From: a virus
Taxonomy: Duplodnaviria > Caudoviricetes
Reading direction: 5' to 3' (one strand)
IMG/VR virus record: IMGVR_UViG_3300032325_000820
Location: 1-53,937 of that record
Length of the DNA: 53,937 nucleotides
Each line of letters opens with the position of its first letter. Positions within the stretch are counted from its first letter, which is position 1. A model generated the notes under the pieces. The model was not told where the DNA came from. It did no database searches and saw nothing but the letters and a program-made list of their open reading frames with translations. Shown here piece by piece: positions 1 to 53,937 of the stretch. The translations under genes were made by a program, and so were the position numbers.

Positions 1-123
1 AGGGGCGGCCGCTGCTGCTAGCGGTTCGGCTACTGCAGCGGGTTTATCGGCAGCAGGAGCTCTTGCTTCAGCCGGTGCAGCAGCGCTTTCAGCGGGTAGT
101 GCTTCAAGCTCGGCGTCCGATGC
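1..123. repeat. Terminal direct repeat, copy 1 (circular overlap)
   Basis: 1-123 identical to 53815-53937 (aggggcggcc...cgtccgatgc); unit length 53814 bp. Confidence 0.95.
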
Positions 124-418
124 TTCCTCTAGTGCTTCTGATGCCAGTCATTCTGCTAGCAGTGCCTCTACTTCAGCAACTAATGCAGCAAACAGTGCCA
201 CTGCGGCTCAAGACTACTTAAATACTCTTTTAAATACCGGATTAACTCTGCAAGGAGATGTAACCGGTAGCGGATTATTAAGTACGCCGATTGTTACCAC
301 ATTTAAACCTAATCCGGTATTTACCGGTAACGGCTCAATGACTATGCCTTCAGGTAATAATACTCAAAGACCTACTACCCTAATCCCCGGAATGATAAGG
401 TTTAACACTTCAGTTTAA
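2..418 (+). CDS. C-terminal part of tail fibre protein 1 (gene starts at 52667 and crosses the circular join; about 521 aa)
   Basis: Frame 2 open from base 2 to TAA 416-418; Ala/Ser heptads, then ...PSGNNTQRPTTLIPGMIRFNTSV*; in frame with ATG 52667 across the overlap. Confidence 0.85.
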   Translation, partial: GAAAAASGSATAAGLSAAGALASAGAAALSAGSASSSASDASSSASDASHSASSASTSATNAANSATAAQDYLNTLLNTGLTLQGDVTGSGLLSTPIVTTFKPNPVFTGNGSMTMPSGNNTQRPTTLIPGMIRFNTSV

Positions 419-459
419 CTTTATGATAAAATTTATTAATTAATTATAGGAGACTTAAA

Positions 460-1170
460 ATGACCGATAACTTAAATGACAAGAATCTAAAAGCACCACT
501 ACCGACATCTACCGGAAAACCGGAAGTTACTGACGGCACAAACTGGTTTACTCTTGCTACTGAAAACTGGGTTTTAAACACCTTAGGTAGCGTGCCTGCA
601 ACTTTGGCAGCAACGACTAGCAATTTAACGGCTACTTATGCAAATGGTACTAGTGGGACGGGAGCTACTTTAACTAATTCGGGAACTCAAAGCACGCTTG
701 TTATTGATGGAGTTACTTTAGCTGCAGGTAACAGGGTGCTAGTTAAAGATCAGACAGCTGCTTTGCAAAACGGAATATATACGGTAACTAATATCGGTTC
801 TACTACAACTAACTGGGTATTAACAAGAGCTACCGACTTTGATTCCCCGTCCCAAATGGTCAGAGGTAAGACTATTGATGTAATTAGCGGGACAGTAAAT
901 GCCGTAACATCATGGATGCTTACCGGAGCCGTTGCAACTGTCGGTACGGATAGCATTAGCTTTGCAAGACTTGCAAAAAGTGGACTAGATAGTGTGTTAG
1001 GCACGACCAATCAAATTACGGTAACGGTTACTAATAATGTCGCAACCGTTAGTATTAGTTCTAATCCTGTATTACCCGGCACTGCATCAGTTACTATTCC
1101 AACCGGAACAACGCTGCAGAGACCATCTACTCTAACTGCCGGAATGCTCAGATTTAACACCAGTCTCTAG
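460..1170 (+). CDS. Tail fibre / virion structural protein 2
   Basis: Thr/Gly-rich; IDGVTL..G.RVLVKDQT...QNGIY.V...W.LTRATDFD phage fibre domain; AGGAG RBS. Confidence 0.8.
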   Translation: MTDNLNDKNLKAPLPTSTGKPEVTDGTNWFTLATENWVLNTLGSVPATLAATTSNLTATYANGTSGTGATLTNSGTQSTLVIDGVTLAAGNRVLVKDQTAALQNGIYTVTNIGSTTTNWVLTRATDFDSPSQMVRGKTIDVISGTVNAVTSWMLTGAVATVGTDSISFARLAKSGLDSVLGTTNQITVTVTNNVATVSISSNPVLPGTASVTIPTGTTLQRPSTLTAGMLRFNTSL

Positions 1171-1195
1171 GAGAGAAATCAAATAGGTTTAAATA

Positions 1196-2404
1196 ATGAA
1201 GCTTGAGTTTTTTGATGGGACTAGCTGGTATAGTGTTGCAAGTGAAAACTTTGTTAATACTAAGGTATTTGATATCAACTCAAATACTAGCGGTCAATTA
1301 AATATCAATCGTTTAAACGGTTATCCGGCCAGTAGCTCTGTTTATCTAAGAGGAGACGGTACTTGGGCTACTCCGGCGGGAAGCGGGACGGTAACCTCGG
1401 TAAACATTGCAGTCGGAAGCGGCCTAACTGTTAGCGGTAGCCCCATTACTACTAGCGGTACTATAACAGTTAATATTGGCAGTATAGCAATAACACAGAT
1501 AGCCGGCTATAGCGCTGCTCCTACCGATACTTTTGTCAGAGGCAATAATACCTGGAGTAAGATATATTCAAGTATTATTAATTTTGATACGGAACTAAAT
1601 AGCGCAGGGCAAAATATTAATGCTCAAACCGGAACATTAATTGCCAATAACCTTGCTGCTTATAATTCAGGGGTAATTGTTTGTGGACATGCTCTTAGTA
1701 TCCAAGACACCGGGACTTATAAACCTTATAACGGTAGTTACGGTTATTTAAGTTCTTCCGGAGGAACCGGAACGTCTACGGGTCAGAATCCATACTCCAT
1801 TAACTGCAACAATAGAGTCAAGGCTTCCGAGTTTAATGCCGTTTCTTCCATTAAAACCAAAAATATTGAATCTTCAGGCAAGTCCATAGAAGAGGAAGCG
1901 TTAAAGAGATTTAATAAAATACCTTTCTTTAAATATAGTTATAAAGATAAAATTAAAAATGGCCAAGGAGTAACTTTTGGCATTGTTGCCGAACCTTTAA
2001 AGGAAGTTTTACCTGATTATGTTTTGGAGGACAAAAGTTTTGTCCCTAATATATTGCAGTCCTGTTTAATTAAACCGATAACGGAATATAGTTACCACTT
2101 AGTATTTAAAGAAAAATTAACCAATATTGAAGGGAGTAAACTACAGTTAATTTTACTTAATAAATCAATTGAAGTAGAGATTTTAAAAACTACCTCAAAG
2201 CGGTTAATCATTTCCTGCTCTGAAAAACTACCAAACAATGGATTTGCCTACGGCACTTTTGAAACCTGTCCTTCAGTTACCAAAAATAAACTTTTTGAAT
2301 TATCCATGGTGGTATTAAAAAACACCTTAAAACGTGTAGATATGCTTGAGAATAAACTCCAATATCTACGATTCATTAACAACAATTTAGGAGAATTAAA
2401 ATGA
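1196..2404 (+). CDS. Tail fibre 3 with C-terminal intramolecular chaperone (peptidase S74-like) domain
   Basis: YLRGDGTW and GTVTSV fibre motifs; SSIKTKNI...Y.Y...FGIVAE.LKEVLPDYV S74-like region and terminal coiled coil. Confidence 0.75.
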   Translation: MKLEFFDGTSWYSVASENFVNTKVFDINSNTSGQLNINRLNGYPASSSVYLRGDGTWATPAGSGTVTSVNIAVGSGLTVSGSPITTSGTITVNIGSIAITQIAGYSAAPTDTFVRGNNTWSKIYSSIINFDTELNSAGQNINAQTGTLIANNLAAYNSGVIVCGHALSIQDTGTYKPYNGSYGYLSSSGGTGTSTGQNPYSINCNNRVKASEFNAVSSIKTKNIESSGKSIEEEALKRFNKIPFFKYSYKDKIKNGQGVTFGIVAEPLKEVLPDYVLEDKSFVPNILQSCLIKPITEYSYHLVFKEKLTNIEGSKLQLILLNKSIEVEILKTTSKRLIISCSEKLPNNGFAYGTFETCPSVTKNKLFELSMVVLKNTLKRVDMLENKLQYLRFINNNLGELK

Positions 2405-2823
2405 GTACGGCTCTAAAAGACATAAGCACCAATTTAAATGATTTAAAATTAATTACTAGCACCCAAGTCGATCTATCCTATTTTAACAGTCTTGCAAGTA
2501 ACGTCTTTAGTGATCCAAGCATATATGCTAATATACAATCGGATGTTCAGTTCATTAACCAGATTGGGGGACAGCTTTTTAACTATTTTAGTGCGTCAGA
2601 TCCAAATACTCAAAAAATATGGTATGTAGCATTAAAATCAGGTTTAACTCAGTCAATTAATGATGCCAATAACTTAATTGGTAAGATTCCGCAAGACAAC
2701 CCAAAAGGCACTGATTTAACAGTAATCCTGAATGTGTTTATCGCGGACTGTCAGGCTATTTGTAAAATCATACCGCTTGATCAAAATCAGGTAGCAGAGA
2801 CAGTACCGGAAGAATTGAATTAA
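2401..2823 (+). CDS. Hypothetical protein
   Basis: ATG overlaps previous stop; AGGAG RBS; 140 aa. Confidence 0.6.
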   Translation: MSTALKDISTNLNDLKLITSTQVDLSYFNSLASNVFSDPSIYANIQSDVQFINQIGGQLFNYFSASDPNTQKIWYVALKSGLTQSINDANNLIGKIPQDNPKGTDLTVILNVFIADCQAICKIIPLDQNQVAETVPEELN

Positions 2824-2846
2824 TTAACAGAAATTAAAAAAGAAAT

Positions 2847-3251
2847 ATGAATTTTGTAAATTATCTTCCTGCTTCTTTTTCCAATCTTGATTATTCCAAA
2901 CAGGTAATTTTAGAATCAACTATTAACACTATATATGTTAATTCTATAACTATATGTAATACAAGCAATAATGATATCAGAATTAATTTATTAAAAAATA
3001 TCATTGGAACTGATAGCAGCTCAAATCAGACCTTTTTAACAAAAAATCTAGAAATTTCTGCTCCTGGAGCTAATAAAATCAGTACAATTAATCTGGTGTC
3101 TTATTTTGGATTAAACGAATTTCTGTCTGTATATATCAATAATAATATTACCTATACATGTCAGTTAATTATTTATTCTGGAGGAGTTAACCAGAACTTT
3201 GATTGTACTGTTAATTATAGTATATTTGTAGAAACACCAATTACATCTTAA
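2847..3251 (+). CDS. Hypothetical beta-rich virion protein
   Basis: 134 aa; SITICNTSN pattern seen in small phage structural proteins; very AT-rich. Confidence 0.5.
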   Translation: MNFVNYLPASFSNLDYSKQVILESTINTIYVNSITICNTSNNDIRINLLKNIIGTDSSSNQTFLTKNLEISAPGANKISTINLVSYFGLNEFLSVYINNNITYTCQLIIYSGGVNQNFDCTVNYSIFVETPITS

Positions 3252-3255
3252 AAAA

Positions 3256-4386
3256 ATGAAAGATAGATATATTAACGACCTTTTAGCTAAACAAGCTTAC
3301 ATCTCAGATAATTTGGCTCGCAAAGACCCATTTGACAAGGCTATTAGAAAGGCTGTCGAATCGGCTAAGAAATCTATAAAAATGGATGAGGATCAGGAAG
3401 ATAAGGCACTTCGTAATAGCCTTTTAACTTGGTCTGAGGAAATGCACAAAATGCCGAGAACAAAAGGATTATTGGCTAATTTTGCTCAAGCCGGCAGAGC
3501 GTTGCTACCTGCATTAAAAACTCATGATATTTATGAAGATGCTGCCGAGGAAGAAAATTTAAAAATGCTGCAACATGCACAGCAGCAAAGAGCAGCAGAA
3601 GAGGCAAAAGCGGCTCAGTTAGAAGCAGCAGCTTACCAAAGAGAAATGGCAGATAAACAAATGGCTCACCAAGGGGCTATGCTAGAAGAGCAGAAGAGAT
3701 ATCATGACCAGTCTTTATTTGCAAAGCTTGCAAAAGCTGCGCAGAAAAAAGAGGGGGATTTCAAAGAATACGAAGGAAAAACTTATAGAACTTTGAATAA
3801 AGCTGACCAAAGTAAAGCCGGAGATGCTAAGGCTATTGCTAATGCTGCAGCTATAAAAGACCAGGATATGAATAAAAGTTTTGAAGATTTAGAGAAACTT
3901 GGAAAAGAGAATTGGTTTCATCCTTTAGGGCGAGGTTCTAGCATTATTAACCCTATAAAAGATACTATAGGTAATGTATTTGGGGTAGAAGATCTTCAAA
4001 AAGAAACGGCTTTAAGAAATTTGTTTATTGCCGAGCTTGGGCAATTAAGGACCATAGCCGAAAGATTAAATACCGGTACTAACGGTATAACTCAAGGAAT
4101 GTATGATCGATTGTCCCCGTATTTTGCCGATCCTAAGAATGATAGTCTTCCGACTTTAAAAATGAAAATAGATCATCTTTCAAAAGAAATTCAAGACATA
4201 CAAAAAGCAGCGACTATAAAACATGAGCAAGGCATTCATTTTGATGTCGGTGATTTAGAGACACCAACTATAGAATCAGATTTTGTTTTGATGCTTGACC
4301 CCAAAACAGGTAAAAAAGATTCTATTCATAAAAGCTGGGTGCAGGATGCTATAAATAAAGATGGTCTGCAGGTAGTAAATGAGTAA
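3256..4386 (+). CDS. Putative internal virion (DNA ejection) protein
   Basis: Helical, Ala/Gln/Lys-rich, no Cys; at the end of the tail operon. Confidence 0.5.
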   Translation: MKDRYINDLLAKQAYISDNLARKDPFDKAIRKAVESAKKSIKMDEDQEDKALRNSLLTWSEEMHKMPRTKGLLANFAQAGRALLPALKTHDIYEDAAEEENLKMLQHAQQQRAAEEAKAAQLEAAAYQREMADKQMAHQGAMLEEQKRYHDQSLFAKLAKAAQKKEGDFKEYEGKTYRTLNKADQSKAGDAKAIANAAAIKDQDMNKSFEDLEKLGKENWFHPLGRGSSIINPIKDTIGNVFGVEDLQKETALRNLFIAELGQLRTIAERLNTGTNGITQGMYDRLSPYFADPKNDSLPTLKMKIDHLSKEIQDIQKAATIKHEQGIHFDVGDLETPTIESDFVLMLDPKTGKKDSIHKSWVQDAINKDGLQVVNE

Positions 4387-6193
4387 ATTTGATAAATATA
4401 AAACTCCTAAAAATATAAATACAGATTATTCTTCTGATGAAAGAAGTAGTGTATTTGATAAATATCAGAGTCCCAAATCCATACCTAAAGAAGTATCGCC
4501 GAGACCGGATAGATGGTGGGGAGAAAAAGCAGCATTAAAAGGAGCAATGGATTTAGTTGATGCTCCGACTAATTTAGCTAACTTAGGAGAAACAGGAATT
4601 AAAACCTATTTAAATAAAACCGGTAATATGCTAAGAAAAGCTGCCGGCAGAGAAGCTATATCATATAATAATCCTAATTTCTTCAGTGAAGAAAACATGC
4701 CGAGAATATCTACTCATATAAAATCATTTGCCAAAAACAAAGGTATTGATTTAGAACCTAGATATAATACAAATTCAGAGCAATTTGTCGGTGAATTAAT
4801 AGGAAATGCTACAAGCGGTGGATTATTTGGAAAATTAAGCCAAGGAGCAAAAGCTTTGGAAGGAGCAAAAACGGCTGTTAAATTAGATTTAGGAAGTAAA
4901 GCTTTACAACAGAGCGGACTTGATCCTTTATATGCAGATATAGCGGTTAATTTTTCACCAAACGTTGCAAGTAAAGCAGCAAATATAATAAAACATCCCA
5001 AAGAAAAGATATATTACCCTTTGGGCAGAAAAATTTTAGGATTAACTCCCGATAAATTAGATAGTAAGGCATTAAAAGCTGCAAGAGATTTAGGCATAGA
5101 TTTACCTGCTGCGGCAGTTACCGATTCCAATTTAACGGGTCTTGCCGATCAATGGCTACAAAAAACTCCTGTTTTGGGTCATAAATTAAAAAATAAATAT
5201 ATTACTACTCAAGAACAAACAAAAAGAGCTTTAGAAGATATTTTTAACAAAACCGGTCCATCAAGAACTCCGGAAATAGAAGCTCAAATTGCGGGTTTAT
5301 ATGATAGAGCCGAAAAATCACTACCTCTTGATGCAAAGGTATTACCAGCTAATCTTAAAAAGGCTATTGATGATATTAAAATCAATACGGCTATTCTTTC
5401 TCCTGATGAAAAAAGCCTCCTGCAGTCACTTGAAACTATTAAAAACGAGATAGAGCCGGCATCAAAAATAATAAGTCAGTACGGACCTATAAAGTTACCG
5501 CTACAAGCGTATGACGTTAATAAACTCGTCGGTACTAAAAAAAGCCTAAATTCAATTATAAAATGGGATACGGACGCAGGGGTTAAAAAGCAGCTTAAAA
5601 AAATACAAAAAGCGATTTCGCAGGATATTAAAGAGTACGGCAACAGTAACCCGGAGTGGTATCAGACTTTTAAGGGTGCTGATAAATTATACGGCAATGT
5701 GGCAAAAAGAGAAAAACTCGAAAATATACTCGGGCATAAAGGAACAAACTGGACTTTTGAAGATTTAAAATATAATGCACTTGCCAAGGCAATAAATGAT
5801 CCTAAAAATTTTAAGATTATAAAGAAACAACTTACTCCGGAAGCTAACGAGCAAGTACAAAAATTAGGCACTGTAGCAAAAGCTATGGCATTAAAGAACG
5901 CTCGTATTCCCAACCCCTCAGGAACGGCAATAACTGCAAGTACTTTAGGGCTTATAGGAGGAGTTTATGCTAATCCTCTGCTAGCATTAAGCGGTTCGGG
6001 ACTTGGAACGGTAGGAGGGGGTTTAATAGCACGTGATTTATTAACTAATAAAAAGTTTTTAGACTTAAGCCTGCAAAATGCTGAGAAACAAGCAACTAAA
6101 TTACCTTTTAAACAACGTTATTATAACGAAATAACAGATAATTTACGCAAGCATTCTCCTCTCATTTTAACTAGGGAAGCTAACAGATTTTGA
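4379..6193 (+). CDS. Putative DNA ejection/transfer protein
   Basis: 604 aa, helical, no Cys; ALKAARDLGIDLP and NPSGTA motifs with Gly-rich hydrophobic C-terminal segment, as in podovirus ejection proteins. Confidence 0.6.
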   Translation: MSKFDKYKTPKNINTDYSSDERSSVFDKYQSPKSIPKEVSPRPDRWWGEKAALKGAMDLVDAPTNLANLGETGIKTYLNKTGNMLRKAAGREAISYNNPNFFSEENMPRISTHIKSFAKNKGIDLEPRYNTNSEQFVGELIGNATSGGLFGKLSQGAKALEGAKTAVKLDLGSKALQQSGLDPLYADIAVNFSPNVASKAANIIKHPKEKIYYPLGRKILGLTPDKLDSKALKAARDLGIDLPAAAVTDSNLTGLADQWLQKTPVLGHKLKNKYITTQEQTKRALEDIFNKTGPSRTPEIEAQIAGLYDRAEKSLPLDAKVLPANLKKAIDDIKINTAILSPDEKSLLQSLETIKNEIEPASKIISQYGPIKLPLQAYDVNKLVGTKKSLNSIIKWDTDAGVKKQLKKIQKAISQDIKEYGNSNPEWYQTFKGADKLYGNVAKREKLENILGHKGTNWTFEDLKYNALAKAINDPKNFKIIKKQLTPEANEQVQKLGTVAKAMALKNARIPNPSGTAITASTLGLIGGVYANPLLALSGSGLGTVGGGLIARDLLTNKKFLDLSLQNAEKQATKLPFKQRYYNEITDNLRKHSPLILTREANRF

Positions 6194-6305
6194 TAATGGG
6201 ATTTGAGTTTAATCAAAGGATAAATCCTTAGCGTAGGATATTTTCCGAATTCTATCGTGATCCCTTATCGTGTATTTACGGCCAATTATTCCTGATGCCC
6301 TTAAT

Positions 6306-8219
6306 CTATCCATAAAACTTTTTTTGCTTAAATTCAAAAGCTGGAACAATATCTATTCCATATCCGCGAATTGGTTGGTTTGCAGTATAATTCGGATTTC
6401 TTATATATTCCATTGGATCATAACCGAAATTATTATACCAAGTTCCTTCTATTTCACTATATGGTTTATTTGCTGCTTTCATATTTGCAAAATAATTATT
6501 GTAATATTTTTGTTTTTCTTCTGTTAATCTCAAGTTTTCAGATTGTATATGCTTTTCAAGCATCTTTTGTCTTTGTCGCTCTTTCATTAATTGAGCTTCT
6601 TTAGTAGCATCCTGGTTTACTAATTCTTCTTGCCTTGTTTTATAATCTTCTGTAGATTTTATAGCATCATTTCTAGAAGCTAGCTCTTTTTCAAGCTCGC
6701 TATATCTATTTTTTAGATCAGATATGGAGGATAAATCTATACCTTGATTATTAAAATGATTAAATACCGTGTTAATGCCTCCTTCTGCACCTGAAGCGTA
6801 TCCTGTCCCTCTAGCATTATTAAGTAACATTGGTTGCTGAAAGTTTTTTTCGTTTTGATATGCCCTATATAATTGTTCGTTGTTTTCTTGGTCATTCTTC
6901 CATTTTTCCAATCCTTTTAAATTGGTGTTTTTTATATCCCCGAGAGTATTACTAAATTCTGTATTAGCTAATTGATCATACTGCCCGAGTTTACCTATTT
7001 TATTTATGTCTTCATGGTGTTTAGAGGCTATATTTTTTAGTAAATCATTTTTAACAAGATTGCCTCTTGAGGTAAGAGTTGCATCACTTAACTCTCTCAT
7101 TCTATTGCTAACGGATTTTAAATGAGCACCACTTCCATAAGTACCCTGTCTGATATATTTTGCATTTAGAGCGTTTAAATCAGCTTCTAATTTTTTTTGT
7201 CCCTCATAATCAAGAGCTTCAAATTTAGCTTTTAATTGCTCAGGCAAATTCCCTACGACTTGATTTATTGAATTTGGTGTATTTTCTATACCCTTGCGGA
7301 CTAATTTACGATCAAGATAGTTCTTATCTTTATAAGACGGACTTAATTCTTCAGCTAGTTTATATGATCTATCCATTGTTGGATTAATTGGTTCTACCAG
7401 CTTTCCTTGGTAGACAGGCATATTAATTCTATTAGAACTTTCCCATTGATTAACCGGTTTATTAGTATCTATTCCATAAGCTTGTAGAGCTTTTACAAGT
7501 TGTTGTGCATTCACTTGTGCTAAATCAGGATGGATTTCTTCTCCACTGCCAATAGTATCTAGTACCTGCTGCAAATTCTGTAATCTTACGTAAGGATCAT
7601 CTTTTTCAGCTTCAAACCTAGCTTTCTCTGCCGTAAGTCCCTTGTTTATTATGCCGTGTTTTTGTTCTCCGTAGCCATAAAGATCACTGATTAATCCTTT
7701 TTTTCTTGCTTCTTTAGCTTTTGCAGATTGAGAGAGTGCCGTAAAAGCTGAGCGGTTTTTCTTACCTTCTAATTCTCTTATTGGAGCATTTAAATTCTCT
7801 ATATCAGAACCGAGTTCATTAAGCTTAATACCACTATCTTGAGCCATTTTTTCTTTTAATTTGTCAGAATAGGGGGCAAAATTGGCTCCATACTGCCTAT
7901 TTAATTTATCAAAAACTATTCCGTTATTAAATGAACTATGTTTTTCGTTAAGGTTTCTTAAAATCTCTCCTATATTTTCTTTTGTCAGTCCTTCTGCACT
8001 TGCATTTGCTAATGATTGAAGGCCGCCCTGATATGGCATACCTTTAGATAGACGCCTTTGTTCTAAGGCTTGTGCTCTTTGTGTTAGAGCAGACATAGGA
8101 GCAATAGTTTTACCGGGGTAAGGGGTATAATTAGTACCTGATAGTTTACTACTATCCCTAAGTAATATTCCCCTTGCTTTATTCCTTAATTCATCAAAAG
8201 ATAAGCTATTTTTTGACAT
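6306..8219 (-). CDS. Putative internal virion/ejection protein with internal duplication
   Basis: 637 aa; PYPGKTIAPMS motif recurs as VYQGKLVEPIN; coiled coil. Confidence 0.55.
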   Translation of the reverse strand: MSKNSLSFDELRNKARGILLRDSSKLSGTNYTPYPGKTIAPMSALTQRAQALEQRRLSKGMPYQGGLQSLANASAEGLTKENIGEILRNLNEKHSSFNNGIVFDKLNRQYGANFAPYSDKLKEKMAQDSGIKLNELGSDIENLNAPIRELEGKKNRSAFTALSQSAKAKEARKKGLISDLYGYGEQKHGIINKGLTAEKARFEAEKDDPYVRLQNLQQVLDTIGSGEEIHPDLAQVNAQQLVKALQAYGIDTNKPVNQWESSNRINMPVYQGKLVEPINPTMDRSYKLAEELSPSYKDKNYLDRKLVRKGIENTPNSINQVVGNLPEQLKAKFEALDYEGQKKLEADLNALNAKYIRQGTYGSGAHLKSVSNRMRELSDATLTSRGNLVKNDLLKNIASKHHEDINKIGKLGQYDQLANTEFSNTLGDIKNTNLKGLEKWKNDQENNEQLYRAYQNEKNFQQPMLLNNARGTGYASGAEGGINTVFNHFNNQGIDLSSISDLKNRYSELEKELASRNDAIKSTEDYKTRQEELVNQDATKEAQLMKERQRQKMLEKHIQSENLRLTEEKQKYYNNYFANMKAANKPYSEIEGTWYNNFGYDPMEYIRNPNYTANQPIRGYGIDIVPAFEFKQKKFYG

Positions 8220-8222
8220 GAT

Positions 8223-9326
8223 TTAAAACCTTATGGGAGTTCCTGAAAATTGTGGGTTGTTATAATAATTTAACCATCTACCAGTACGTGCGTATTCATC
8301 GGGATTACTAACTCTGCTATAAATAGGTTCAATATCTATTTTCTCTTCCGGTAAGAATTTTTTGCGGGCATTTCGGCGTCTTGCTTGCTCCAATTGAAGT
8401 TCGTATTGCTCCTGTGCTGCCATTTCTTCCGGAGTTAGTCGTTGAGCCAGCATTTTTTCTTTTAGTTCCTTACCTTCTTGTGCTGCAGTCTTTGGTTTTG
8501 GTTGATTAAATCTATCATATAAACTAAGACCTGTACTCCCAAGAGCTAATAGGTTCTTAGGTTTACTTAAAAAGTTCATACTATTATCTTGTAGTTTATC
8601 AAGAAAACTCATGTTGTCCTTTTCCTTCTCTTTAGCAAGTAGATACTGTAAATAACTCTCAGTATCGTCACCGGCAGATACACCTACACCTTTTTGACTG
8701 CTGCCTCCTGACATAGAAGATAGGGTACTTCCGCCTGTTAAATAATCTGATACTCCAAGTGATTTTTCAGCTCCGGTAAAGGGTAAGCCAAGTCCCCTAA
8801 CTCCTCTGCCGAGTTGAGCTATATTACCCATCCAACTGCCCATATTATTACTGCCGTAATTTTGAAGAGCCTGCCCGATAGAATTAGCACCGAGTTTAGT
8901 TAAACCTTGTCCCGCTAAGTTACCTACCATCGGTAATGCCGTTCCATACCCGGCGCCTTTTAAAGCTCCGTAAAGGGGGTTTTCTCCATCACCGCGTATA
9001 GCAGACCTCGCAGCTCCACCTAAAGCTCCTCCAAGCGGTCCACCAAAAATAGCAGCTGCCGTACCGATTGTATCGGCTATGGTACGTTTTGGGTTTTTTA
9101 AAGTTTTACTTATTGTTTTAGCAGGATTCTTTAAAAAGTTTCTTACACCTCTAAAAAAGAATTCAGGAAGCCCAGTATCAGGGTTAATGCTGCCGCTACC
9201 GCCCATCTTTTTAAGCATTATAGCCTCAAGTGGATTAACGTGAGCAAGCTCAGTGTCCCCGTTACGGCCTTTCTTCTTGATTTGCTCTAAAAGGCAATTA
9301 ATATCTTTTTTGTTATATTTTTTCAT
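8223..9326 (-). CDS. Putative ejection/pilot protein
   Basis: GRNGDTELAHVNP.E..LK..GGSG.INP.TGLPEF podovirus motif followed by Gly/Ala amphipathic segments. Confidence 0.6.
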   Translation of the reverse strand: MKKYNKKDINCLLEQIKKKGRNGDTELAHVNPLEAIMLKKMGGSGSINPDTGLPEFFFRGVRNFLKNPAKTISKTLKNPKRTIADTIGTAAAIFGGPLGGALGGAARSAIRGDGENPLYGALKGAGYGTALPMVGNLAGQGLTKLGANSIGQALQNYGSNNMGSWMGNIAQLGRGVRGLGLPFTGAEKSLGVSDYLTGGSTLSSMSGGSSQKGVGVSAGDDTESYLQYLLAKEKEKDNMSFLDKLQDNSMNFLSKPKNLLALGSTGLSLYDRFNQPKPKTAAQEGKELKEKMLAQRLTPEEMAAQEQYELQLEQARRRNARKKFLPEEKIDIEPIYSRVSNPDEYARTGRWLNYYNNPQFSGTPIRF

Positions 9327-11837: not shown

Positions 11838-11843
11838 TATCGT

Positions 11844-12152: not shown

Positions 12153-12309
12153 GATTTCTAATTTAGCTTCAAGTATTTTAATATACTTATTATAACCAAA
12201 AATTGCCGTAATCTCTAGTAGCAACGACATTTTTTATTTGGTAAGAATCATAAATATCCTGAATACAAAGTCCAAAAGGTTAAAAACTAATGGATTTGAT
12301 GGTGTTATT

Positions 12310-12476: not shown

Positions 12477-12478
12477 TA

Positions 12479-40614: not shown

Positions 40615-40643
40615 AAATTAACTTATTTACCAAGATATATCAC

Positions 40644-42998: not shown

Positions 42999-42999
42999 T

Positions 43000-43218: not shown

Positions 43219-43232
43219 AAAGGAGTAAAAAC

Positions 43233-43625: not shown

Positions 43626-43647
43626 CTTTAAAAAGGGGTGATTATAA

Positions 43648-44589: not shown

Positions 44590-44594
44590 TTATT

Positions 44595-45038
44595 ATGAAA
44601 AATGAAAGAAGAACAAGAGATACCGAAAATAGAATGTTTGATAAAGACGAAAGTAGGACTTTCTATAATCATGATTATATTAGCCCTTTAACTATTCCGG
44701 AATATGTAATAAAACCCGGATTTGAATATTATTGGGAAAGGAGGAGTTTAAAAGGTCAAATGGATACGGCTTTAAGTATGGCCTATAAAAGGGGATGGAG
44801 ACCGGTAAAAGTTAGTGATGATCCAAATAGAATTCCAAGCGACCTTTTTGAATTAGATGAGGTGGCAAAAACTTACATATGTGAAGGAGATTGTATTTTA
44901 CTTGAGAGAGAAAAGAAACGCGGAGAAATAGAAAGAAAAAAACATAATGAATATTCATTAAGAATGGCTACTGAATCCAAAGCTTATAATTATAATGATA
45001 ATAAGCCGACCGAGAACGCTTTAAACGTAAAGATATAA
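44595..45038 (+). CDS. Conserved phage head-region protein
   Basis: PG..Y.W.R....G; GW.PV; ILL motif. Confidence 0.6.
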   Translation: MKNERRTRDTENRMFDKDESRTFYNHDYISPLTIPEYVIKPGFEYYWERRSLKGQMDTALSMAYKRGWRPVKVSDDPNRIPSDLFELDEVAKTYICEGDCILLEREKKRGEIERKKHNEYSLRMATESKAYNYNDNKPTENALNVKI

Positions 45039-45044
45039 AATATC

Positions 45045-46181
45045 ATGGCATTTTTTCCATCAATAGATACGGCGAAAGAAATAACTTTAACTGCCAATAT
45101 CCAGCTGGATTATCCGTATTCGGCAAATCTTGCTAATGTTACCGTAGCGGATATGATGGATGTTACGGCTACCATAGGCAACTTAAATATTTTCTTGCCG
45201 GACGCAACACAAACTACTCCGGGATTTTCCATTAGTTTTAATAATGTCGGAGCTAATAGTTTTAATATTGTTTTAAACGATCAACTAACACTATTTACGC
45301 CTGTTGCTGCCGGCAAAGTTTTGACAATATATTTATATGATACTACAACTCCTAACGGAAGCTGGAGAATAATTCCTTTCGGCGGTGGGGTAAACGGTAT
45401 ATCAGAATTAACTTTAACTAGCTCGGATGATTCAATTACGGTAACGGGTAGCCCGGTATCTCCTCCAAGCGGGACACTTGACATTAAGTTGCCTAGTCTT
45501 ATTTCAGCAATCACAGAGCTTGCAAACGGAACGCCCGGAATACTTGCTCTTGATCCGGAAACAAATAGTTGGTCATTAATATCGCTTGTAAACGGTAGTA
45601 ATATAGTAATTACCAACCCGAGCGGAGTAGGCGGTAATCCAACGATAAGTTTAGGTACTGTGATAGTTGTAAATCAGATTACGGCAGGGAATATAATTAT
45701 TAATAATGATTTAATTACCAACACCGATAGCGGGGGAGTACTCAGTATCGTTTCAAACGGGACTAATTCGGCTTTAAACCTAAATAGTGTTTTAGTCGAT
45801 ACTGAGGGGAATATTACGGGCATTAACAATCTAACCATAGAAGGTATATTCAAGTCAGTTAATACTGCTAAAGCCTGGTGCAGATTTAGTAATACTTCTG
45901 GAACAATTGCAGTTTCCTCTAGCTGTAACGTCTCAGGAGTAACTTATAATAGCAGTAATTCTCAATATGTCATTACATTTACAAGTCCGATGGGTAATTT
46001 GAATTATGGAGTATTTATAAGCTGTGCCAATAATAACAGCACGCCTCCTTTAGCGCCGCGAATAGGTTATGATATTGTAAGACAATTAAATTCCGTAACC
46101 ATAGTTTTAACGGATAGTTCAGGTGAAATGCTACCTGATATTCCCGAAGGTGTATCTGTTATGATATTTTCAACAAGTTAA
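45045..46181 (+). CDS. Virion structural/tail protein
   Basis: Thr/Ser/Asn beta-rich; GGNPTIS; C-terminal AKAW..F...NV..V.....Y.I.F...M...NY domain. Confidence 0.65.
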   Translation: MAFFPSIDTAKEITLTANIQLDYPYSANLANVTVADMMDVTATIGNLNIFLPDATQTTPGFSISFNNVGANSFNIVLNDQLTLFTPVAAGKVLTIYLYDTTTPNGSWRIIPFGGGVNGISELTLTSSDDSITVTGSPVSPPSGTLDIKLPSLISAITELANGTPGILALDPETNSWSLISLVNGSNIVITNPSGVGGNPTISLGTVIVVNQITAGNIIINNDLITNTDSGGVLSIVSNGTNSALNLNSVLVDTEGNITGINNLTIEGIFKSVNTAKAWCRFSNTSGTIAVSSSCNVSGVTYNSSNSQYVITFTSPMGNLNYGVFISCANNNSTPPLAPRIGYDIVRQLNSVTIVLTDSSGEMLPDIPEGVSVMIFSTS

Positions 46182-46192
46182 TTTCTATTAAC

Positions 46193-46570
46193 TTAAGCTA
46201 AAATATAAGGAACTTTATATTTAATAATTTTCTCATCTCTAGTAATTATGGTTAAATTTTCAATTATAGCTTGAGATATAAGAAGTCTATCAAAAGGGTC
46301 GTCATGATGTTTATCTAAATTTTCGATAAAAAGCGTATGTTTAATTGCTATAGGTAATACGTCAAAACCACATTGTAATATGATTTCTTCTAAGTTACTT
46401 GGAACATTAAGTTTACCCAAAGATTTTTTAATAGTAATCTCCCACGTATTAACAGAACTAATAAAAATAAGATTGTTAGGATTACTGATAATTTGTTTAG
46501 ATTGATAAGATAAATTTAAATTATCCTCTATCCACCAAATAAATGTATGGGTATCTAATAAATAACTCAT
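46193..46570 (-). CDS. vapC: VapC PIN-domain toxin
   Basis: LLDTH..IW; S.V..WEI.IK..LGKL; HDDPFDRLLI.QA. Confidence 0.92.
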   Translation of the reverse strand: MSYLLDTHTFIWWIEDNLNLSYQSKQIISNPNNLIFISSVNTWEITIKKSLGKLNVPSNLEEIILQCGFDVLPIAIKHTLFIENLDKHHDDPFDRLLISQAIIENLTIITRDEKIIKYKVPYILA

Positions 46571-46806
46571 TATATTTTATCATAAAATTTAGATAATAAT
46601 TCAGGAGATAATTCGTCAAAATCTTCGGACATTTTAACTTTACCTTTGCAAATACCGGGTCTGCGGGGTGATAATAATTTTTGATATTTAATCAATCTAA
46701 CAATAGGTTTTCCTGCTTTACAAATGATAACATCTTCCCCGTCTTCCACTTTTTTTATTAAATTGGATAAATGAGTTTTAGCCTTATGTATTGTTGAAAC
46801 TTGCAT
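46570..46806 (-). CDS. Phd/YefM family antitoxin
   Basis: IH.AKTHLS.L...VE.GE.VII.KAGKP..RL. Confidence 0.9.
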   Translation of the reverse strand: MQVSTIHKAKTHLSNLIKKVEDGEDVIICKAGKPIVRLIKYQKLLSPRRPGICKGKVKMSEDFDELSPELLSKFYDKI

Positions 46807-46883
46807 TTTAGTAATTAATTTAAGTTAGTTCAGTTTAGACTAAGTTTAAATTTAATTCAACATAAAATATAACCGATACCGTC

Positions 46884-46912
46884 TTGATATTTTAATTTTA
46901 ATTTATTAAAAT
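46884..46912 (+). promoter_or_regulatory. Candidate sigma70 promoter of the capsid/tail operon
   Basis: TTGATA-17 bp-TAAAAT; the region is AT-rich, so a chance match is possible. Confidence 0.45.
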
Positions 46913-47101
46913 TAACTTAAAGCAAAAGTTTGCCACAACTATAAGGGCGTCTTTGAGTTTGTAGTTTTATCTCTGCAAAAAACTAGGTTTTTTTCCGCTA
47001 TTAAAGTCGGGAAGCTTTAAGCTTCATGGGTTCATCTAGCCTTCTAATAGATTAAAAATTTCAAATACTATTTTTAATAATAAATATTTTTAGGTAAATA
47101 T

Positions 47102-48223
47102 ATGGCTTATGGCGTAAATTCACCTTTTGGTTTAGTACCTTACGGTCATTTAATCAGCGGTGTTGATAATATAAAAACAAATAGTAATTATAAAATAAAT
47201 GCTAATAGTTATAGTTTAAATAAAGGAGACCCGGTTGTATATGCTCCCTCAAGTGGCACATATAGTTACGCTCAATCTGCTGCCGAGATTATGTTATATA
47301 ATCCTACTCCGGTTTTTGCAGCAGCATGGGCGGCCGGTACTCCTCTTAACGTAACAACTATTACGCATAACTCTGCGGCTCCCGGCGCAGCTGCCGTAGC
47401 TACTCCAAAACCGGCTATTCTTGGGGTGTTTCAGGGATGTGCTTATTACGCTCCTGACGGTACTTATATTGAACAAGAATACTGGGTAGCAGGAACACAA
47501 GTAAAAGCCGGAACTTATCCAACAGCTACAATCATTGATGATCCTTTTGTTATCTGGGATATACAACTTAGTTGCTACAGCGGAGCTTTAACGGCGGCAA
47601 ACACTACATTTGCTTTATTACCGTGTTTGCAAGTGCAAGATGGTACTTGGCCTGATACGGGAAATGCAAGTAATGCTCCGACCATAGGAAACAGCGCCGT
47701 TATCGGTAGCGGTATTGAATTAATAACCGGAAGTGCTATAGGCGCGACTAATAACAGTGCTTCATCAATGGCTACTATTACATTAAACGGAGCTGTGGCA
47801 GGTTATGCTAATAATCCACTTATTGCTAACTACGGCACAGCAAACGGTAATCCGTGGGGAGTATCTACTTTTTATGCTTGTCCGTCTTTAGCCGTCATTG
47901 CCCGTGCTAATGCCGCAACTACTGCTGCGGACATAAGCGGTGCGAACGAATATAATAGAAATCCTTATGTAGCATTAAACGTGGCTGCTCCGGCTAACTA
48001 TACGCAGAACACTTATGCGAGTTCTACTTTAGGAACAGGATTCGGTGCTACTCTTAAAGTACTTGGTTTTACGCCAAATGCTAAGAATGTACCGGGCACT
48101 TACGGTCAACCGGGTAATGCTAGAGCCGGCACTTATTACAATACTCCGTTCTTAAACGTACTTGTAACTATTAATAATCACGCAAAACTTCCAGGATTAA
48201 TGCCTGTGACTGTTACTGCCTAA
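47102..48223 (+). CDS. Capsid decoration/minor capsid protein
   Basis: N.PFGL.P; GD.V; GVFQGC.Y; DDP...Q motifs; Ala-rich insertions; immediately before MCP. Confidence 0.6.
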   Translation: MAYGVNSPFGLVPYGHLISGVDNIKTNSNYKINANSYSLNKGDPVVYAPSSGTYSYAQSAAEIMLYNPTPVFAAAWAAGTPLNVTTITHNSAAPGAAAVATPKPAILGVFQGCAYYAPDGTYIEQEYWVAGTQVKAGTYPTATIIDDPFVIWDIQLSCYSGALTAANTTFALLPCLQVQDGTWPDTGNASNAPTIGNSAVIGSGIELITGSAIGATNNSASSMATITLNGAVAGYANNPLIANYGTANGNPWGVSTFYACPSLAVIARANAATTAADISGANEYNRNPYVALNVAAPANYTQNTYASSTLGTGFGATLKVLGFTPNAKNVPGTYGQPGNARAGTYYNTPFLNVLVTINNHAKLPGLMPVTVTA

Positions 48224-48244
48224 AATATAATGAGGTAATATAAA

Positions 48245-49159
48245 ATGGCTATTAATACTCAATCGATTTATAATCTACTCCGCCCCGGATTAAAGGCGGT
48301 TATAGGTTTATATGAAGATTATCCTGATTTATGGAAGGAAATGTTTGAAACTTATCCTTCTGAGCGTGCCTTTGAATTTGAAGACGAAATCAGAGCGCTC
48401 GCTCCTGCCGTTGAAAAACTTGAAGGGTCATCCATAGCTCAAGATACAATGACAGTTAAATACCAAACGATGTATAAGCATAAAACTTACGGTACTTCGT
48501 TTAGTATAACCGATGAGGCTATGAATGATAACCTGTATAAAAATCTGTTTCCAAAACAGGCTAAGGCACTTGCTCAAGCTCTTAGGGAAACAAAAAATCA
48601 GATTGCTGCTAATATTTTAAATCTCGGTAATGTTATTACTACTGCAGACGGCTATCCTTTGTTTTCTGCTCATCCAATAGATGGGGGTGCTACTTCCAGT
48701 AATACGACTAACGTTGCTTTAAGTGAAATCGGTATTCAAAATGCCGTAACTGCGATTTCTCAGCTCAAGCAAATAAGCGGTACTTATGCGCAGGTTAAAT
48801 CAAAGAAATTGGTAACCGGTTCTAGCAATTGGATGGTAGCAGGTATTCTAATTGGCAGCCAATTTAGAACCTCTGTCGGTAGTGCTAACAACAATGCTTA
48901 TGCCGGTGTTAACGATCTTAACATGATAAATCATGATAGCGTTTTCCCGCAAGGTTATATTATCAATCCTTTTATTACTTCTCCGACGGCATCGTACATT
49001 ATTACTGATGCAGAAAGAGGACTTATTCACTATGAACGTGAAAAAATCAAGGATTGGTCTTGGATGGATAATACTACCAGGAGCATATGGTTTGCAGCGC
49101 AAGAAAGATATTGTTTCGGCGTATCTAACTGGCGTGGTGTATTCCAAATCGGTCAATAG
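48245..49159 (+). CDS. Major capsid protein
   Basis: L.PGL....G; S.RAFE; K.EG; IT.EA..DNLY; DG..LFS.HP; ERY.FG.S.WRG. Confidence 0.88.
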   Translation: MAINTQSIYNLLRPGLKAVIGLYEDYPDLWKEMFETYPSERAFEFEDEIRALAPAVEKLEGSSIAQDTMTVKYQTMYKHKTYGTSFSITDEAMNDNLYKNLFPKQAKALAQALRETKNQIAANILNLGNVITTADGYPLFSAHPIDGGATSSNTTNVALSEIGIQNAVTAISQLKQISGTYAQVKSKKLVTGSSNWMVAGILIGSQFRTSVGSANNNAYAGVNDLNMINHDSVFPQGYIINPFITSPTASYIITDAERGLIHYEREKIKDWSWMDNTTRSIWFAAQERYCFGVSNWRGVFQIGQ

Positions 49160-51322: not shown

Positions 51323-51337
51323 ACATAGGAAATCATT

Positions 51338-51565
51338 ATGAGACTTGAGAAACGTATATATCAGTGTGATCGTAGCGGAGAGATGCACGAGAAATTATAT
51401 AAACAACTTGAATGGGCTGGTGATCAGAAAATATGGACTGGGTTATGGGTTGCAAAAGAATATCTTGATAAACCACAGGAACAATTTAGAGCTCCAATTG
51501 CAAAAGATGATCCAAAACCAGTGCCGAATCCTAGACCTTTTACTTTAAATATGGATGAGGAATAA
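51338..51565 (+). CDS. Small conserved phage protein
   Basis: CDRSG...EW.G..TGL.V.....DKPQ...DP.PV.NPRP. Confidence 0.7.
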   Translation: MRLEKRIYQCDRSGEMHEKLYKQLEWAGDQKIWTGLWVAKEYLDKPQEQFRAPIAKDDPKPVPNPRPFTLNMDEE

Positions 51566-51635
51566 AAGGGATATTTTAACTCGTTTTACTTGAATTATTT
51601 TTATCAACACTACCTATGTTTTTAGGGAGATAATC

Positions 51636-52670
51636 ATGGATATAAATACAATTAGAGTATTATCTCTTGATGGAGGAGGGGTTAGAGGGGTAATAACTTC
51701 TACTTTACTTGATCTTTTCTGTAATCAAGCAGGCATACCAGGTAATCAGATATATAAATATTTTGATATTATCGCCGGTACTTCTATAGGCGGGATTCAG
51801 GCCTTGGCATATGCTAAAGGACTAACACCGTCTTATATTAAGAATATGTTAATAAATAATGCCTCTAGTATTTTTAATTGTACTTATCCGATTCCCGGAG
51901 GAGGGCAGGCGGGTTATGGAACCTGGAGCGGTTATTTAACCGGTATCTATAGTTCTTTATATTCACAAACCCCTTTAGCTAATTTGATTAATAGCAATTT
52001 TGGCACGGATACTATTAGTAGTTATCAAACAAATGTATTAGTGCCGGCTTTTCAGCGTTCAAATGAAGCAGGAACTACCAATGTACCTGTTTATTTTTCG
52101 AATGTCTCAAGTTCAATTGTTCCTTATTTATCCGGTCAAACTGAATTATCGGCAAATGTTGCGCTGGCAACTAGTGCTGCTCCCGTTTATTTTCCGCCTG
52201 CCGTATTTAATGGATGTACTTATGTTGACGGCGGAATTTTTTTAAATAACGCCTCAGCAATGGCTTTATCGGTACAAAGGGCAATAAAACCGACCGTTAA
52301 TCGTTTTTGTGTTCTCTCTATCGGGACGGGACTTGGTAGTATCGGTTATATTCCAGGTGAACCTGCAGCGGATGGATTAATACTTAGAGGAGCAGTTGAT
52401 AATCTTAATACGATAAAAATGGTGATGGACGTTTCTATGAGCGTTCCACCGGAAGGAGTATCGATAGAGCAGCAAATCATAGCTAATTATACCGTCGGTA
52501 ATTCTTATTATTGCAGAATGCAGTATCCGATTGATTTAAGCAGGGAACCGGATAGTTCCTTGGATAATTCCGATCCGGAGTTTATAGAGTATATGCAGGA
52601 TTCGGCTACTGCATATTTTAATAATAACTTAAATAATATTAATAATTTTATAGGGCATTTATTGGTATGA
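51636..52670 (+). CDS. Patatin-like phospholipase
   Basis: LSLDGGGVRG, AGTSIGG (GxSxG), ATSAAP.YF, DGG. Confidence 0.92.
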   Translation: MDINTIRVLSLDGGGVRGVITSTLLDLFCNQAGIPGNQIYKYFDIIAGTSIGGIQALAYAKGLTPSYIKNMLINNASSIFNCTYPIPGGGQAGYGTWSGYLTGIYSSLYSQTPLANLINSNFGTDTISSYQTNVLVPAFQRSNEAGTTNVPVYFSNVSSSIVPYLSGQTELSANVALATSAAPVYFPPAVFNGCTYVDGGIFLNNASAMALSVQRAIKPTVNRFCVLSIGTGLGSIGYIPGEPAADGLILRGAVDNLNTIKMVMDVSMSVPPEGVSIEQQIIANYTVGNSYYCRMQYPIDLSREPDSSLDNSDPEFIEYMQDSATAYFNNNLNNINNFIGHLLV

Positions 52671-53937
52671 GAAATGATGTTTTATATAATTTTATCTCAC
52701 CTATAACAGGACGCCTTCCTCTTACTAATAATTATATTTTAATAGGAGCACCTGATAACTTTTCTATCATGTCGCCAAAGTTAATAGACATGCAGCTTGA
52801 TATTATAAATATCAGGCATTACGTAGATAATATAGCAAACTCCAGTTTTATTATCGGTTTTCCTAATAATGATTTACCTAAAGCCCAAGTTCTAAGTAAT
52901 TTAGATAATGGCTTTTTGTTTAATACGGACGGTATAATTAGTACTCAAGGAGTAGTACCTCTTCCTAGCCTAGCTTATAAAAACATATGGATAGGTGATA
53001 GTAATAATTTAGCAAAACCTCAACCAACCATTACCATTGATAACCTACCAAATTTAGGAACTACAAGCATTAACGTGCCTAATCCTCTTGATCCAACTAA
53101 TCCAATTGTTATTTCAGGAGGTAAAATCTGGCACGGCACAGATTCTAACAGACCGGAAGAATCTAATGCCTTGTTAGTGGTAGAAGGAGATATTGCCTTA
53201 ATTAATTTCAGGTTTTTTAGCGCTAATTTTATTCTTGGAAAAGGTAACAGTGTACTGCAAACATTAATGCCCGGCTCACAATTTCTCTCAAATCTACCGG
53301 CAGGCTCTTGGATGCAAACAAGTGGAGCAGGGACTGGAGCAGTAGTAAGTGCGACTATACCACAAGGAGAAATATTAATGGGCGGTTTAAATAACGTGCC
53401 GGAAGCACGTCAAACTATAGATATTGCAAACCTACCATCCTTAACTGATGGGAGGGTCTGGCAAGGGGACGCAGCAAATAGACCGGTTGAAGTCCAGTTA
53501 AACCTTGCTCCAACCGATGCTACTTACATCATAAAAACTCCGAATGTCAATTTACCTGAGGCACAGGTATTAGAGGAACTAGGGATAGGAATGGCCAAGA
53601 TTGTTGCCGGCGGGGCATTTGCTATTGCTATCGCCGGCGAGGATTACGCTACTGTCGCGCAGTTAGAAGAAATTAGAGATCAATGCCAGCAGTATGCAGA
53701 GCAGGCAGCTACTTCAGCGGAGGAAGCTGCAACCTCAGCAGGCGAGGCGTCAACTTCTGCTGGTGAAGCCACTGCATCGGCGGCAGAGGCTACGGGAGCA
53801 GCAGCGGAAGCAACAGGGGCGGCCGCTGCTGCTAGCGGTTCGGCTACTGCAGCGGGTTTATCGGCAGCAGGAGCTCTTGCTTCAGCCGGTGCAGCAGCGC
53901 TTTCAGCGGGTAGTGCTTCAAGCTCGGCGTCCGATGC
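52667..53937 (+). CDS. Tail fibre protein 1, N-terminal part (continues at 124-418)
   Basis: ATGA overlap with patatin; repeated LP.L...IW.G...N.P modules; stf-like Ala/Ser heptads; no stop before the window end. Confidence 0.8.
   Translation, partial: MRNDVLYNFISPITGRLPLTNNYILIGAPDNFSIMSPKLIDMQLDIINIRHYVDNIANSSFIIGFPNNDLPKAQVLSNLDNGFLFNTDGIISTQGVVPLPSLAYKNIWIGDSNNLAKPQPTITIDNLPNLGTTSINVPNPLDPTNPIVISGGKIWHGTDSNRPEESNALLVVEGDIALINFRFFSANFILGKGNSVLQTLMPGSQFLSNLPAGSWMQTSGAGTGAVVSATIPQGEILMGGLNNVPEARQTIDIANLPSLTDGRVWQGDAANRPVEVQLNLAPTDATYIIKTPNVNLPEAQVLEELGIGMAKIVAGGAFAIAIAGEDYATVAQLEEIRDQCQQYAEQAATSAEEAATSAGEASTSAGEATASAAEATGAAAEATGAAAAASGSATAAGLSAAGALASAGAAALSAGSASSSASD
53815..53937. repeat. 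Terminal direct repeat, copy 2
   Basis: Identical to 1-123. Confidence 0.95.

Follow-up and report, generated by a model that had tools for sequence, protein, structure and literature searches.

The IMG/VR virus record IMGVR_UViG_3300032325_000820, a stretch of 53,937 bases analysed here over its whole length (the window), most probably represents a complete temperate phage-plasmid of podovirus type from Candidatus Megaira (Megaera) polyxenophila or a very close relative, a reading to which we assign a probability of about 0.68. Megaira belongs to the Rickettsiaceae and lives as a symbiont in freshwater ciliates and algae. A virion and packaging block takes up about half of the element, from 38.3 kb over the join of its circular map to 11.8 kb, and the non-virion half, from 11.8 to 38.3 kb, holds plasmid functions and cargo. 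A reading of the bare sequence by a model (the original prediction) had proposed just such a union of a podovirus virion module with a rickettsial plasmid replicon; this architecture is supported by the comparisons below, and the element would persist as a plasmid and form particles.

The gene set comprises 59 genes covering 92% of the element, which has a GC content of 34.9%. Protein families were assigned by scanning 59 open reading frame (ORF) queries against Pfam, 30 against PHROGs, 10 against PADLOC and 10 against NCBIfam. Searches for tRNA genes and for Rfam families in the element returned none.

A complete circular map

Bases 1-123 of the window are identical to bases 53815-53937, the circular overlap that the original prediction had noticed, which leaves a unique length of 53,814 bases; IMG/VR flags the record as having “direct terminal repeats” and CheckV puts its completeness at 100%. 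We retrieved 13 IMG/VR contigs through their major capsid protein (MCP; 79-100% amino acid identity). Three of them (L007, L009, L013) align straight through the join from 53937 to 1, three more (L011, L012, L018) link both of its sides around diverged fibre genes, and the remaining seven stop before reaching it. A Logan contig of run X1, possibly the source sample, measures 53,844 bases, the 30 bases beyond 53,814 being a k-1 overlap, and has the join near its middle, and a 924-base Logan contig of run X2 also spans the join. Continuity at this point, which had been proposed as a check, is thus established by independent contigs. The 123-base repeat stems from assembly overlap, which makes the map circular, and does not mark a physical end, because it lies inside a gene (a fibre-like ORF of 521 codons which, walked on the circular map, starts at 52667 and stops at 418) and because in other assemblies the sequence continues through it or the circle is opened at another point; the fixed physical ends that a direct-terminal-repeat phage would have at the repeat are not seen. 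The map of 53,814 bases is complete and circular and, as predicted, carries no chromosomal flank.

Virion and packaging genes

The virion block encodes the full packaging and structural set expected of a phage-plasmid, namely small and large terminases (TerS and TerL), portal, MCP, adaptor and fibres, and so bears out the podovirus-like morphogenesis genes recognised at the outset. On the plus strand, TerS (38298-38756; phrog_309, 1.3e-15) is followed by TerL (38757-40265; phrog_38, 9.5e-70; 39% identical to that of Roseobacter phage CRP-901), the portal (40644-42998; phrog_1216, 2.4e-13; 30% to that of Pelagibacter phage HTVC023P), a GroES-like co-chaperonin (43215-43625; phrog_3188, 6.1e-5), a fibre-like protein (45045-46181; phrog_11355, 4.8e-9) and an MCP of the Phage_capsid_4 family (48245-49159; PF25209, 8.4e-14; phrog_371). 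The tail-fibre-like gene that crosses the join (5' part 52667-53937, 3' part 124-418; phrog_3279 tail fibre, 2.6e-5) has 78% amino acid identity to a gene of the Megaira plasmid CP113869.1, and beyond it lie a fibre or head-decoration-like protein (460-1170; 14 PHROG families, best 6.3e-20; 96.6% identical to a Megaira NDG2 plasmid protein) and a tail fibre with a C-terminal intramolecular chaperone domain (Peptidase_S74) (1196-2404; PF13884, 1.3e-5, above cut-off). The minus strand contributes a virion structural protein (9598-11169; phrog_3287, 3.1e-14) and an SU10-type, podoviral head-to-tail adaptor (11169-11837; PF24175, 4.6e-14; phrog_2941, 1.6e-15). The Pfam and PHROGs scans found no match to tail tube, sheath or tape-measure families, which is consistent with a short-tailed virion.

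The virion genes are intact and under strong purifying selection. The ratio of nonsynonymous to synonymous substitution rates (dN/dS) is 0.008-0.125 for MCP against the 13 relatives, 0.075-0.096 for TerL and about 0.10 for the portal, and there are no stop codons in the relatives' copies of the virion genes compared.

Two pairs of conserved proteins accompany this set, and neither pair matched a family in the Pfam and PHROGs scans. The first, of 376 and 604 amino acids (3256-6193, plus strand), travels with the virion block and stands beside the RecT-Rep core described below in 17 and 14 of the 52 Rep-bearing loci that we collected. The second, of 637 and 367 amino acids (6306-9326, minus strand), is present in 21/52 and 24/52 of these loci and comprises candidate internal or ejection proteins. 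The block also contains a patatin-like, CapV-like phospholipase (51636-52670, plus strand; PF01734, 8.6e-27; PADLOC phospholipase effector, 1.6e-50; CapV chains in the PDB, 1e-18 to 6e-15) that is under purifying selection against close relatives (dN/dS 0.05-0.10); the virion blocks of CP113869.1 and of the plasmid pPCS109 likewise contain a patatin gene. It does not present as part of a cyclic-oligonucleotide-based anti-phage signalling system (CBASS), as no cyclase family was matched among the Pfam-scanned ORFs and the gene sits among virion genes; our guess is that it might act in entry or release.

Mosaicism within the block is sharp: in comparison with CP113869.1, identity is 78-97% for the fibres (52667-2823) and drops to 29-49% for head and packaging genes (38757-49159). 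Relatives sharing the MCP type display the converse mosaic, with near-identical heads and fibre cassettes too diverged for blastn (L011, L012).

Putative replication, partition and stability genes

The plasmid half centres on a Rep-like protein (26433-27512, plus strand) that is 84% identical to its counterpart on CP113869.1 and in which a poor structural model places a winged helix at residues 50-130. It matches 27 plasmid records, 16 from Rickettsia and 11 from Candidatus taxa, each one listed being Megaira. The region shared with Rickettsia plasmids (such as those of R. felis, R. monacensis and R. asiatica) is C-terminal, with 28-35% identity over about 100 amino acids to proteins named for a “DnaA N-terminal domain”; homologues on Megaira and Rickettsia plasmids carry that annotation or “DnaA-like”. 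Across 19 Rep homologues Pfam returned HTH_36 alone (E 0.04-0.08), weak Foldseek matches of the model are to winged-helix proteins, among them plasmid initiators and DnaD, and its look-alikes in the Atlas fall in HTH_36 and RepA_N clusters with low shared-feature counts. A divergently oriented gene (25777-26085, minus strand; weak HTH_34, HTH_11 and MarR_2 matches, all below cut-off) encodes a winged-helix protein that may be a regulator, and in the family two genes at 24671-25643 (minus strand) accompany Rep more regularly than any others (41/52 and 43/52 loci). The N-terminal 100 or so amino acids of a 471-amino-acid protein (33039-34454, plus strand; 15/52 loci) are paralogous to Rep (33% identity, E 3e-8), and its residues 192-465 share 68% identity with a hypothetical protein of AP017966.1.

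A partition system is encoded on the plus strand by a small ParA ATPase of 204 amino acids (12479-13093; AAA_31, 1.5e-18; CbiA, 7.4e-15) and a ribbon-helix-helix (RHH) partner whose start overlaps the end of parA (13090-13335; PF20605, 1.4e-11) and whose role may be ParG-like, the two genes that the original prediction had named. Directly upstream of parA lie AT-rich tandem repeats (12306-12480; a 64-nt unit in 2.1 copies and a 20-nt unit in 4.4 copies), a candidate partition site.

The short resolvase of the original prediction is present as a short recombinase, of tyrosine and not serine type (17082-17621, minus strand; 179 amino acids; PF00589, 1.3e-31, profile positions 3-171 of 172). It consists of the catalytic domain only, without an N-terminal core-binding domain, aligning to XerA solely at positions 96-261 of 263. 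The claim that a full-length integrase is lacking holds, as this is the sole ORF of the element with a Phage_integrase domain. A 528-nt coding sequence annotated as “site-specific integrase” on plasmid pMegNEIS296 underlies an 88.5% nucleotide match to the gene, whose product we infer to resolve multimers.

Two toxin-antitoxin-like systems had been proposed, of which one was recovered: a PIN toxin (46193-46570; PIN, 6.4e-14) preceded by an overlapping Phd/YefM antitoxin (46570-46806; phd_fam, 9.6e-10, above cut-off), a VapBC-type arrangement sharing base 46570 and transcribed from the minus strand against the flow of the virion genes. A second pair was not found with the scans run; small ORFs lie at 31982-32296 and 32311-32457, and PDB searches with the ORFs at 31982-32293 and 21705-22046 returned nothing.

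Recombination functions are encoded on the minus strand by a RecT single-strand annealing protein (22493-23377; PF03837, 6.5e-27; 92% to CP113869.1) and a YqaJ-type exonuclease (23684-24613; PF09588, 3.5e-32). Between them lies a 70-amino-acid ORF (23475-23687, minus strand) that resembles a helix-turn-helix (HTH) protein of Cro/C1 (XRE) type by eye and by position, CP113869.1 having an annotated HTH gene in the same place between YqaJ and RecT. The scans of the element's ORFs found no polymerase, primase or helicase family.

Host assignment

All nucleotide-level evidence points to Megaira. Megablast against the plasmid collection matched Candidatus Megaera/Megaira only, in 5/5 records for bases 1-25000 and 7/7 for bases 25001-50000, with 78-90% identity over segments. 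The fibres are 78-97% identical to those of CP113869.1 and, being receptor-binding proteins, indicate the same host species. The best plasmid matches of a ProP-like transporter of the major facilitator superfamily (MFS) are from Rickettsia, Megaira and Paracaedibacter (48-50%), several of them with the same adjoining HD/SpoT gene. NCBI places Megaera in the Rickettsiaceae, and the rickettsial host anticipated by the original prediction is accordingly matched by these best hits and by those of Rep and RecT. The host is thus supported, by homology, as Candidatus Megaira polyxenophila or a very close relative.

A widespread family of related elements

Rep was found on 40 IMG/VR loci (44-88% identity) and on 12 genome loci, the latter comprising Rickettsiales and Rickettsiaceae metagenome-assembled genomes (MAGs), plasmid p2 of the Megaera single amplified genome 25.80 and three contigs binned elsewhere. 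These three (L019, L024, L025) were binned as Polaribacter, Flavobacterium and an unclassified “bacterium”, and are probably mis-binned copies of the element. The order around Rep is conserved (virion-linked unknowns, RecT, YqaJ, two unknowns, Rep, HD, MFS), TerL is present in 13/17 Rep-bearing records, and one contig, retrieved as both L009 and L031, carries an MCP of the window's type together with Rep. A 62.7-kb contig of a Rickettsiales MAG matches 39/60 query proteins.

Five virus records at least 97% complete, of 50.4-58.9 kb and three of them flagged as having direct terminal repeats, served as complete relatives. All five carry TerL and a ParA-like ORF (208-231 amino acids), and none has a Phage_integrase domain. 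The one record that IMG/VR labels “provirus” is colinear with the other members over its whole length and lacks flanking sequence of foreign origin. No integrated copy or junction was seen, in agreement with the original prediction.

The GTDB family to which a Rickettsiaceae MAG belongs was examined through 131 genomes, of which 109 contain distant TerL homologues (E <= 1e-20). Most of these have 28-36% identity, many lie on contigs of chromosome size, and they are probably the gene-transfer-agent terminase reported for Rickettsiales. A close copy of TerL (49-55%) is present in 3 of the 131 genomes, on contigs C2, C62, C126 and C236, none of which is contig 1. Parts of the element were seen in runs of 16 studies labelled as freshwater, lake, drinking-water or wastewater metagenomes, so the family looks ecologically common.

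Comparison with named systems

The original prediction had missed that close relatives are filed in GenBank as Megaira “plasmids”. One of these, CP113869.1 (Candidatus Megaera polyxenophila NDG2 plasmid unnamed2), is a closed circle of 64,423 bp that was assembled by a hybrid Nanopore approach from a Megaira strain kept in a ciliate culture, as described in PMC10847448. It matches 40/60 query proteins in the same order, with 65-97% identity across plasmid, recombination, methylase and fibre genes (methyltransferases 84-92%), and it too has the HD/MFS pair, ParA and the patatin gene. Its core virion genes differ in lineage (TerL 49%, portal 36%, MCP 29%, adaptor 32%), and it holds no matches to the element's IetAS-like pair, Pom porin, ProQ, sodium:solute symporter or short recombinase. 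CP113869.1 carries IS256 and three group II introns, and pPCS109 (109 kb) has many transposase and “integrase” genes; the insertion sequence (IS) elements of both and the introns of the former argue for long-term residence as replicons. The sister Megaira plasmid CP113870.1 shares Rep, TerL and RecT/YqaJ, and the element's other virion proteins are unmatched there. At 9761-15803 and 36608-57076 of CP113870.1 (locus L005) we observed a family-B DNA polymerase, a primase-helicase and two giant “SecA-like domain” proteins.

Rickettsia plasmids carry, besides the shared region of Rep, a ProP-like MFS protein about 50% identical to that of the element; searches of the plasmid collection with TerL and MCP gave no Rickettsia record among the matches listed. 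In the Holosporales, pBealeia1 of Candidatus Bealeia paramacronuclearis (NZ_CP133271.1; 57.5 kb) has a homologous portal-GroES-MCP block, with a GroES-like protein, a portal 31% identical and an MCP which at 37.5% is closer to the element than the Megaira NDG2 copy is. It differs in its PriCT-2 and RecD-like replication genes, its six RebB R-body genes and a TerL match broken into four pieces. These features were noted at 2344-4635 and 30825-39255 of that plasmid (locus L072), a gene mix reminiscent of the long-standing connection of R bodies with plasmids and phage-like particles to which PMC11909080 refers.

The best relatives among named phages are HTVC023P-type pelagiphages and CRP-901-type roseophages (TerL 31-39%, portal 28-31%), a group called Podoviridae in PMC9599517, which differ in having marine free-living hosts and replication modules of their own; the authors of CRP-901 interpret that phage as strictly lytic, with its own replication genes (PMC10149686). 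The phage collection held no TerL match above the 39% roseophage one, and none for Rep. The only phage of Megaira polyxenophila that we found named in print, in PMC10925606 and in the reference list of PMC10847448, is MAnkyphage (George et al. 2023, Curr Biol), likewise missed by the original prediction.

Classical phage-plasmids (the P1, N15 and SSU5 groups) combine virion genes with replication, partition and addiction functions and do not integrate. The element would fit this logic. The phage-plasmid census of Pfeifer et al. (2021, PMC7969092) names neither Rickettsia nor Megaira in its main text.

Alternative explanations

Circular plasmids and phage genomes with circular permutation give the same circular map, and a number of observations weigh against a phage-plasmid. 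A lytic phage that is circularly permuted and packages by the headful would assemble into a circle just as readily, the Pfam and PHROGs scans turned up no endolysin, holin or spanin, no repressor switch was identified, and the link to the host is one of homology. The initiator role of Rep would follow from the annotation of its homologues and some weak leads: a PDB sequence and profile search found no match, its AlphaFold model is poor (mean predicted local distance difference test score, pLDDT, of 49), Foldseek gave no fold match at E <= 0.001, and beside the gene there is no iteron array, only weak two-copy repeats. Pfam DnaA_N was matched by 0/19 Rep homologues at E <= 0.1, so that the DnaA-N-like Rep of the original prediction survives in the GenBank names of homologues 28-35% identical and not as a domain assignment. 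One alternative is a strictly lytic or chronically shedding Megaira podovirus, whose map would come from circular permutation and whose plasmid genes would be borrowed without stable carriage. By TerL and portal its nearest named phages are of the CRP-901 and HTVC023P types, the former held to be strictly lytic, and in the Pfam scans the element is free of IS elements and neither a repressor switch nor a lysis cassette was identified. We nevertheless consider such a phage fairly unlikely, as the element is without replication enzymes of its own, as Rep, ParA and the absence of an integrase are constant in all five complete relatives, and as relatives are known as closed, IS-laden plasmids in cultured symbiont lines.

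It is also conceivable, if improbable, that we are dealing with a plasmid whose particle module is domesticated or depends on a helper, being defective or like a gene-transfer agent, and not with an autonomous phage. The missing lysis genes would fit, as would pPCS109 and CP113870.1, which are decayed or partial versions, and the distant chromosomal TerL common in the GTDB family (109/131 genomes). Such a module would not be expected to keep the full TerS-TerL-portal-MCP-adaptor-fibre set constrained and free of stops across 13 contigs from other samples, and the sizes of the complete relatives fall within a narrow range of 50-60 kb, as they would under a capsid limit. Very improbable, in our view, is an integrative temperate phage that enters the chromosome through the 179-amino-acid recombinase or host Xer. 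The tyrosine recombinase domain does look catalytically complete and one relative bears a “provirus” flag, but the enzyme has no DNA core-binding domain and is absent from 5/5 complete relatives, no host flank accompanies the record so flagged, which is colinear with its family, and close TerL copies (49-55%) in three genomes sit on contigs other than contig 1. A temperate phage-plasmid of Megaira therefore remains the reading that we favour.

Cargo and other features

Adjacent genes on the minus strand encode an S8 subtilase resembling IetS (13458-15923; Peptidase_S8, 3.8e-61; PADLOC IetS, 1.4e-39) and an AAA ATPase resembling IetA (15926-16894; PADLOC IetA, 3.4e-77), and together probably form an IetAS-like defence pair, with both falling below the NCBIfam equivalog cut-offs (IteS 64.9 against 900 bits; IteA 221.9 against 510 bits). 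The pair was found at 0/52 Rep loci and in none of CP113869.1, CP113870.1 and the Rickettsiales MAG contig.

Several transport and regulatory genes follow. A Pom-family outer-membrane porin (20566-21528, minus strand; PF17251, 3.1e-20) has homologues (32-65%) in 8/131 genomes of the GTDB family and no match in the plasmid collection; a Chlamydiae host, which this porin had suggested, was rejected given its presence in those eight genomes and given that every nucleotide-level relative is Megaira. A stand-alone SpoT/RelA hydrolase (HD) domain (28459-29124, plus strand; HD_4, 1.7e-21; TIGR00691 at positions 1-175 only) is encoded by a gene that overlaps the convergent gene for the ProP-like MFS metabolite/H+ symporter (29042-30346, minus strand; TIGR00883, 1.1e-47, and ProP model, 1.3e-24, both below cut-off), next to which lies a sodium:solute symporter (SSF; 30448-31872, minus strand; PF00474, 6.5e-22). 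Also on the minus strand are a ProQ/FinO RNA-binding protein (22046-22462; PF04352, 5.6e-21), a coiled-coil membrane protein of DUF1640/CCDC90-like type (27626-27970; PF07798, 8e-12) and a DUF1064 protein (11844-12230; PF06356, 4e-13). The plus strand carries a C5 cytosine DNA methyltransferase (34526-35545; PF00145, 3e-52), a conserved phage protein with a weak SSB-like match (35845-36465; phrog_2300, 4.1e-33; phrog_7778, 0.0011) and an N6/N4 DNA methyltransferase fused to ParB_N (37070-38308; PF01555, 1.2e-22; ParB_N, 4.8e-5).

The two transcription arms converge at about 6.2 kb (6194-6305) and diverge at about 31.9 kb (31873-31981), and turning points of the cumulative GC skew coincide with both. 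A promoter scan found 50 candidates, below the 56.7 expected from shuffles.

Proposed mechanism

We propose that the phage persists as a low-copy plasmid instead of integrating. The winged-helix Rep would recruit the host replisome, the element having no polymerase, primase or helicase of its own, and ParA with its RHH partner would segregate copies through the AT-rich repeats upstream of parA. The Xer-like tyrosine recombinase of 179 amino acids would resolve multimers and the Phd-PIN pair would penalise loss of the element. During lytic growth, recombination by RecT and YqaJ would generate concatemers from which TerS and TerL fill HK97-type capsids, probably by headful packaging, and fibres nearly identical to those on Megaira plasmids would direct particles to Megaira. 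Carried along would be the ProP-like MFS protein, the SpoT HD domain, the SSF symporter, the porin, ProQ, the two methyltransferases and the IetAS-like pair.

A wider and more speculative proposal, tentative enough that we think it rather unlikely as a whole, is that these 50-60-kb elements form an active and widespread phage-plasmid lineage that acts as the main gene shuttle among protist-dwelling Rickettsiaceae and whose virion module has a sister in Holosporales. The plasmids of Rickettsia and Megaira that lack a virion and have Rep, ParA, ProP-like and SpoT-HD genes in common with it would then be its decayed descendants.

Significance

Our literature search, to which the supplements of PMC7969092 and PMC10847448 were external, found no described phage-plasmid of Rickettsiaceae or Megaira. 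Phage-plasmids are known as a kind, and a member from the Rickettsiaceae is apparently undescribed; the sequences of its relatives are already public, filed as plasmids or as unnamed viral contigs. Several deposited “plasmids” would be reclassified.

Rickettsiaceae are obligate intracellular bacteria that are hard to manipulate genetically and are, to our knowledge, thought to be poor in phages. The element would provide a natural replicon and packaging system for study in Megaira, of interest to researchers on Rickettsiales and on mobile elements alike. An intact element that combines replicon and particle would also explain how plasmid cargo such as transporters, SpoT domains, porins and defence genes passes from one symbiont to another within the same protist.

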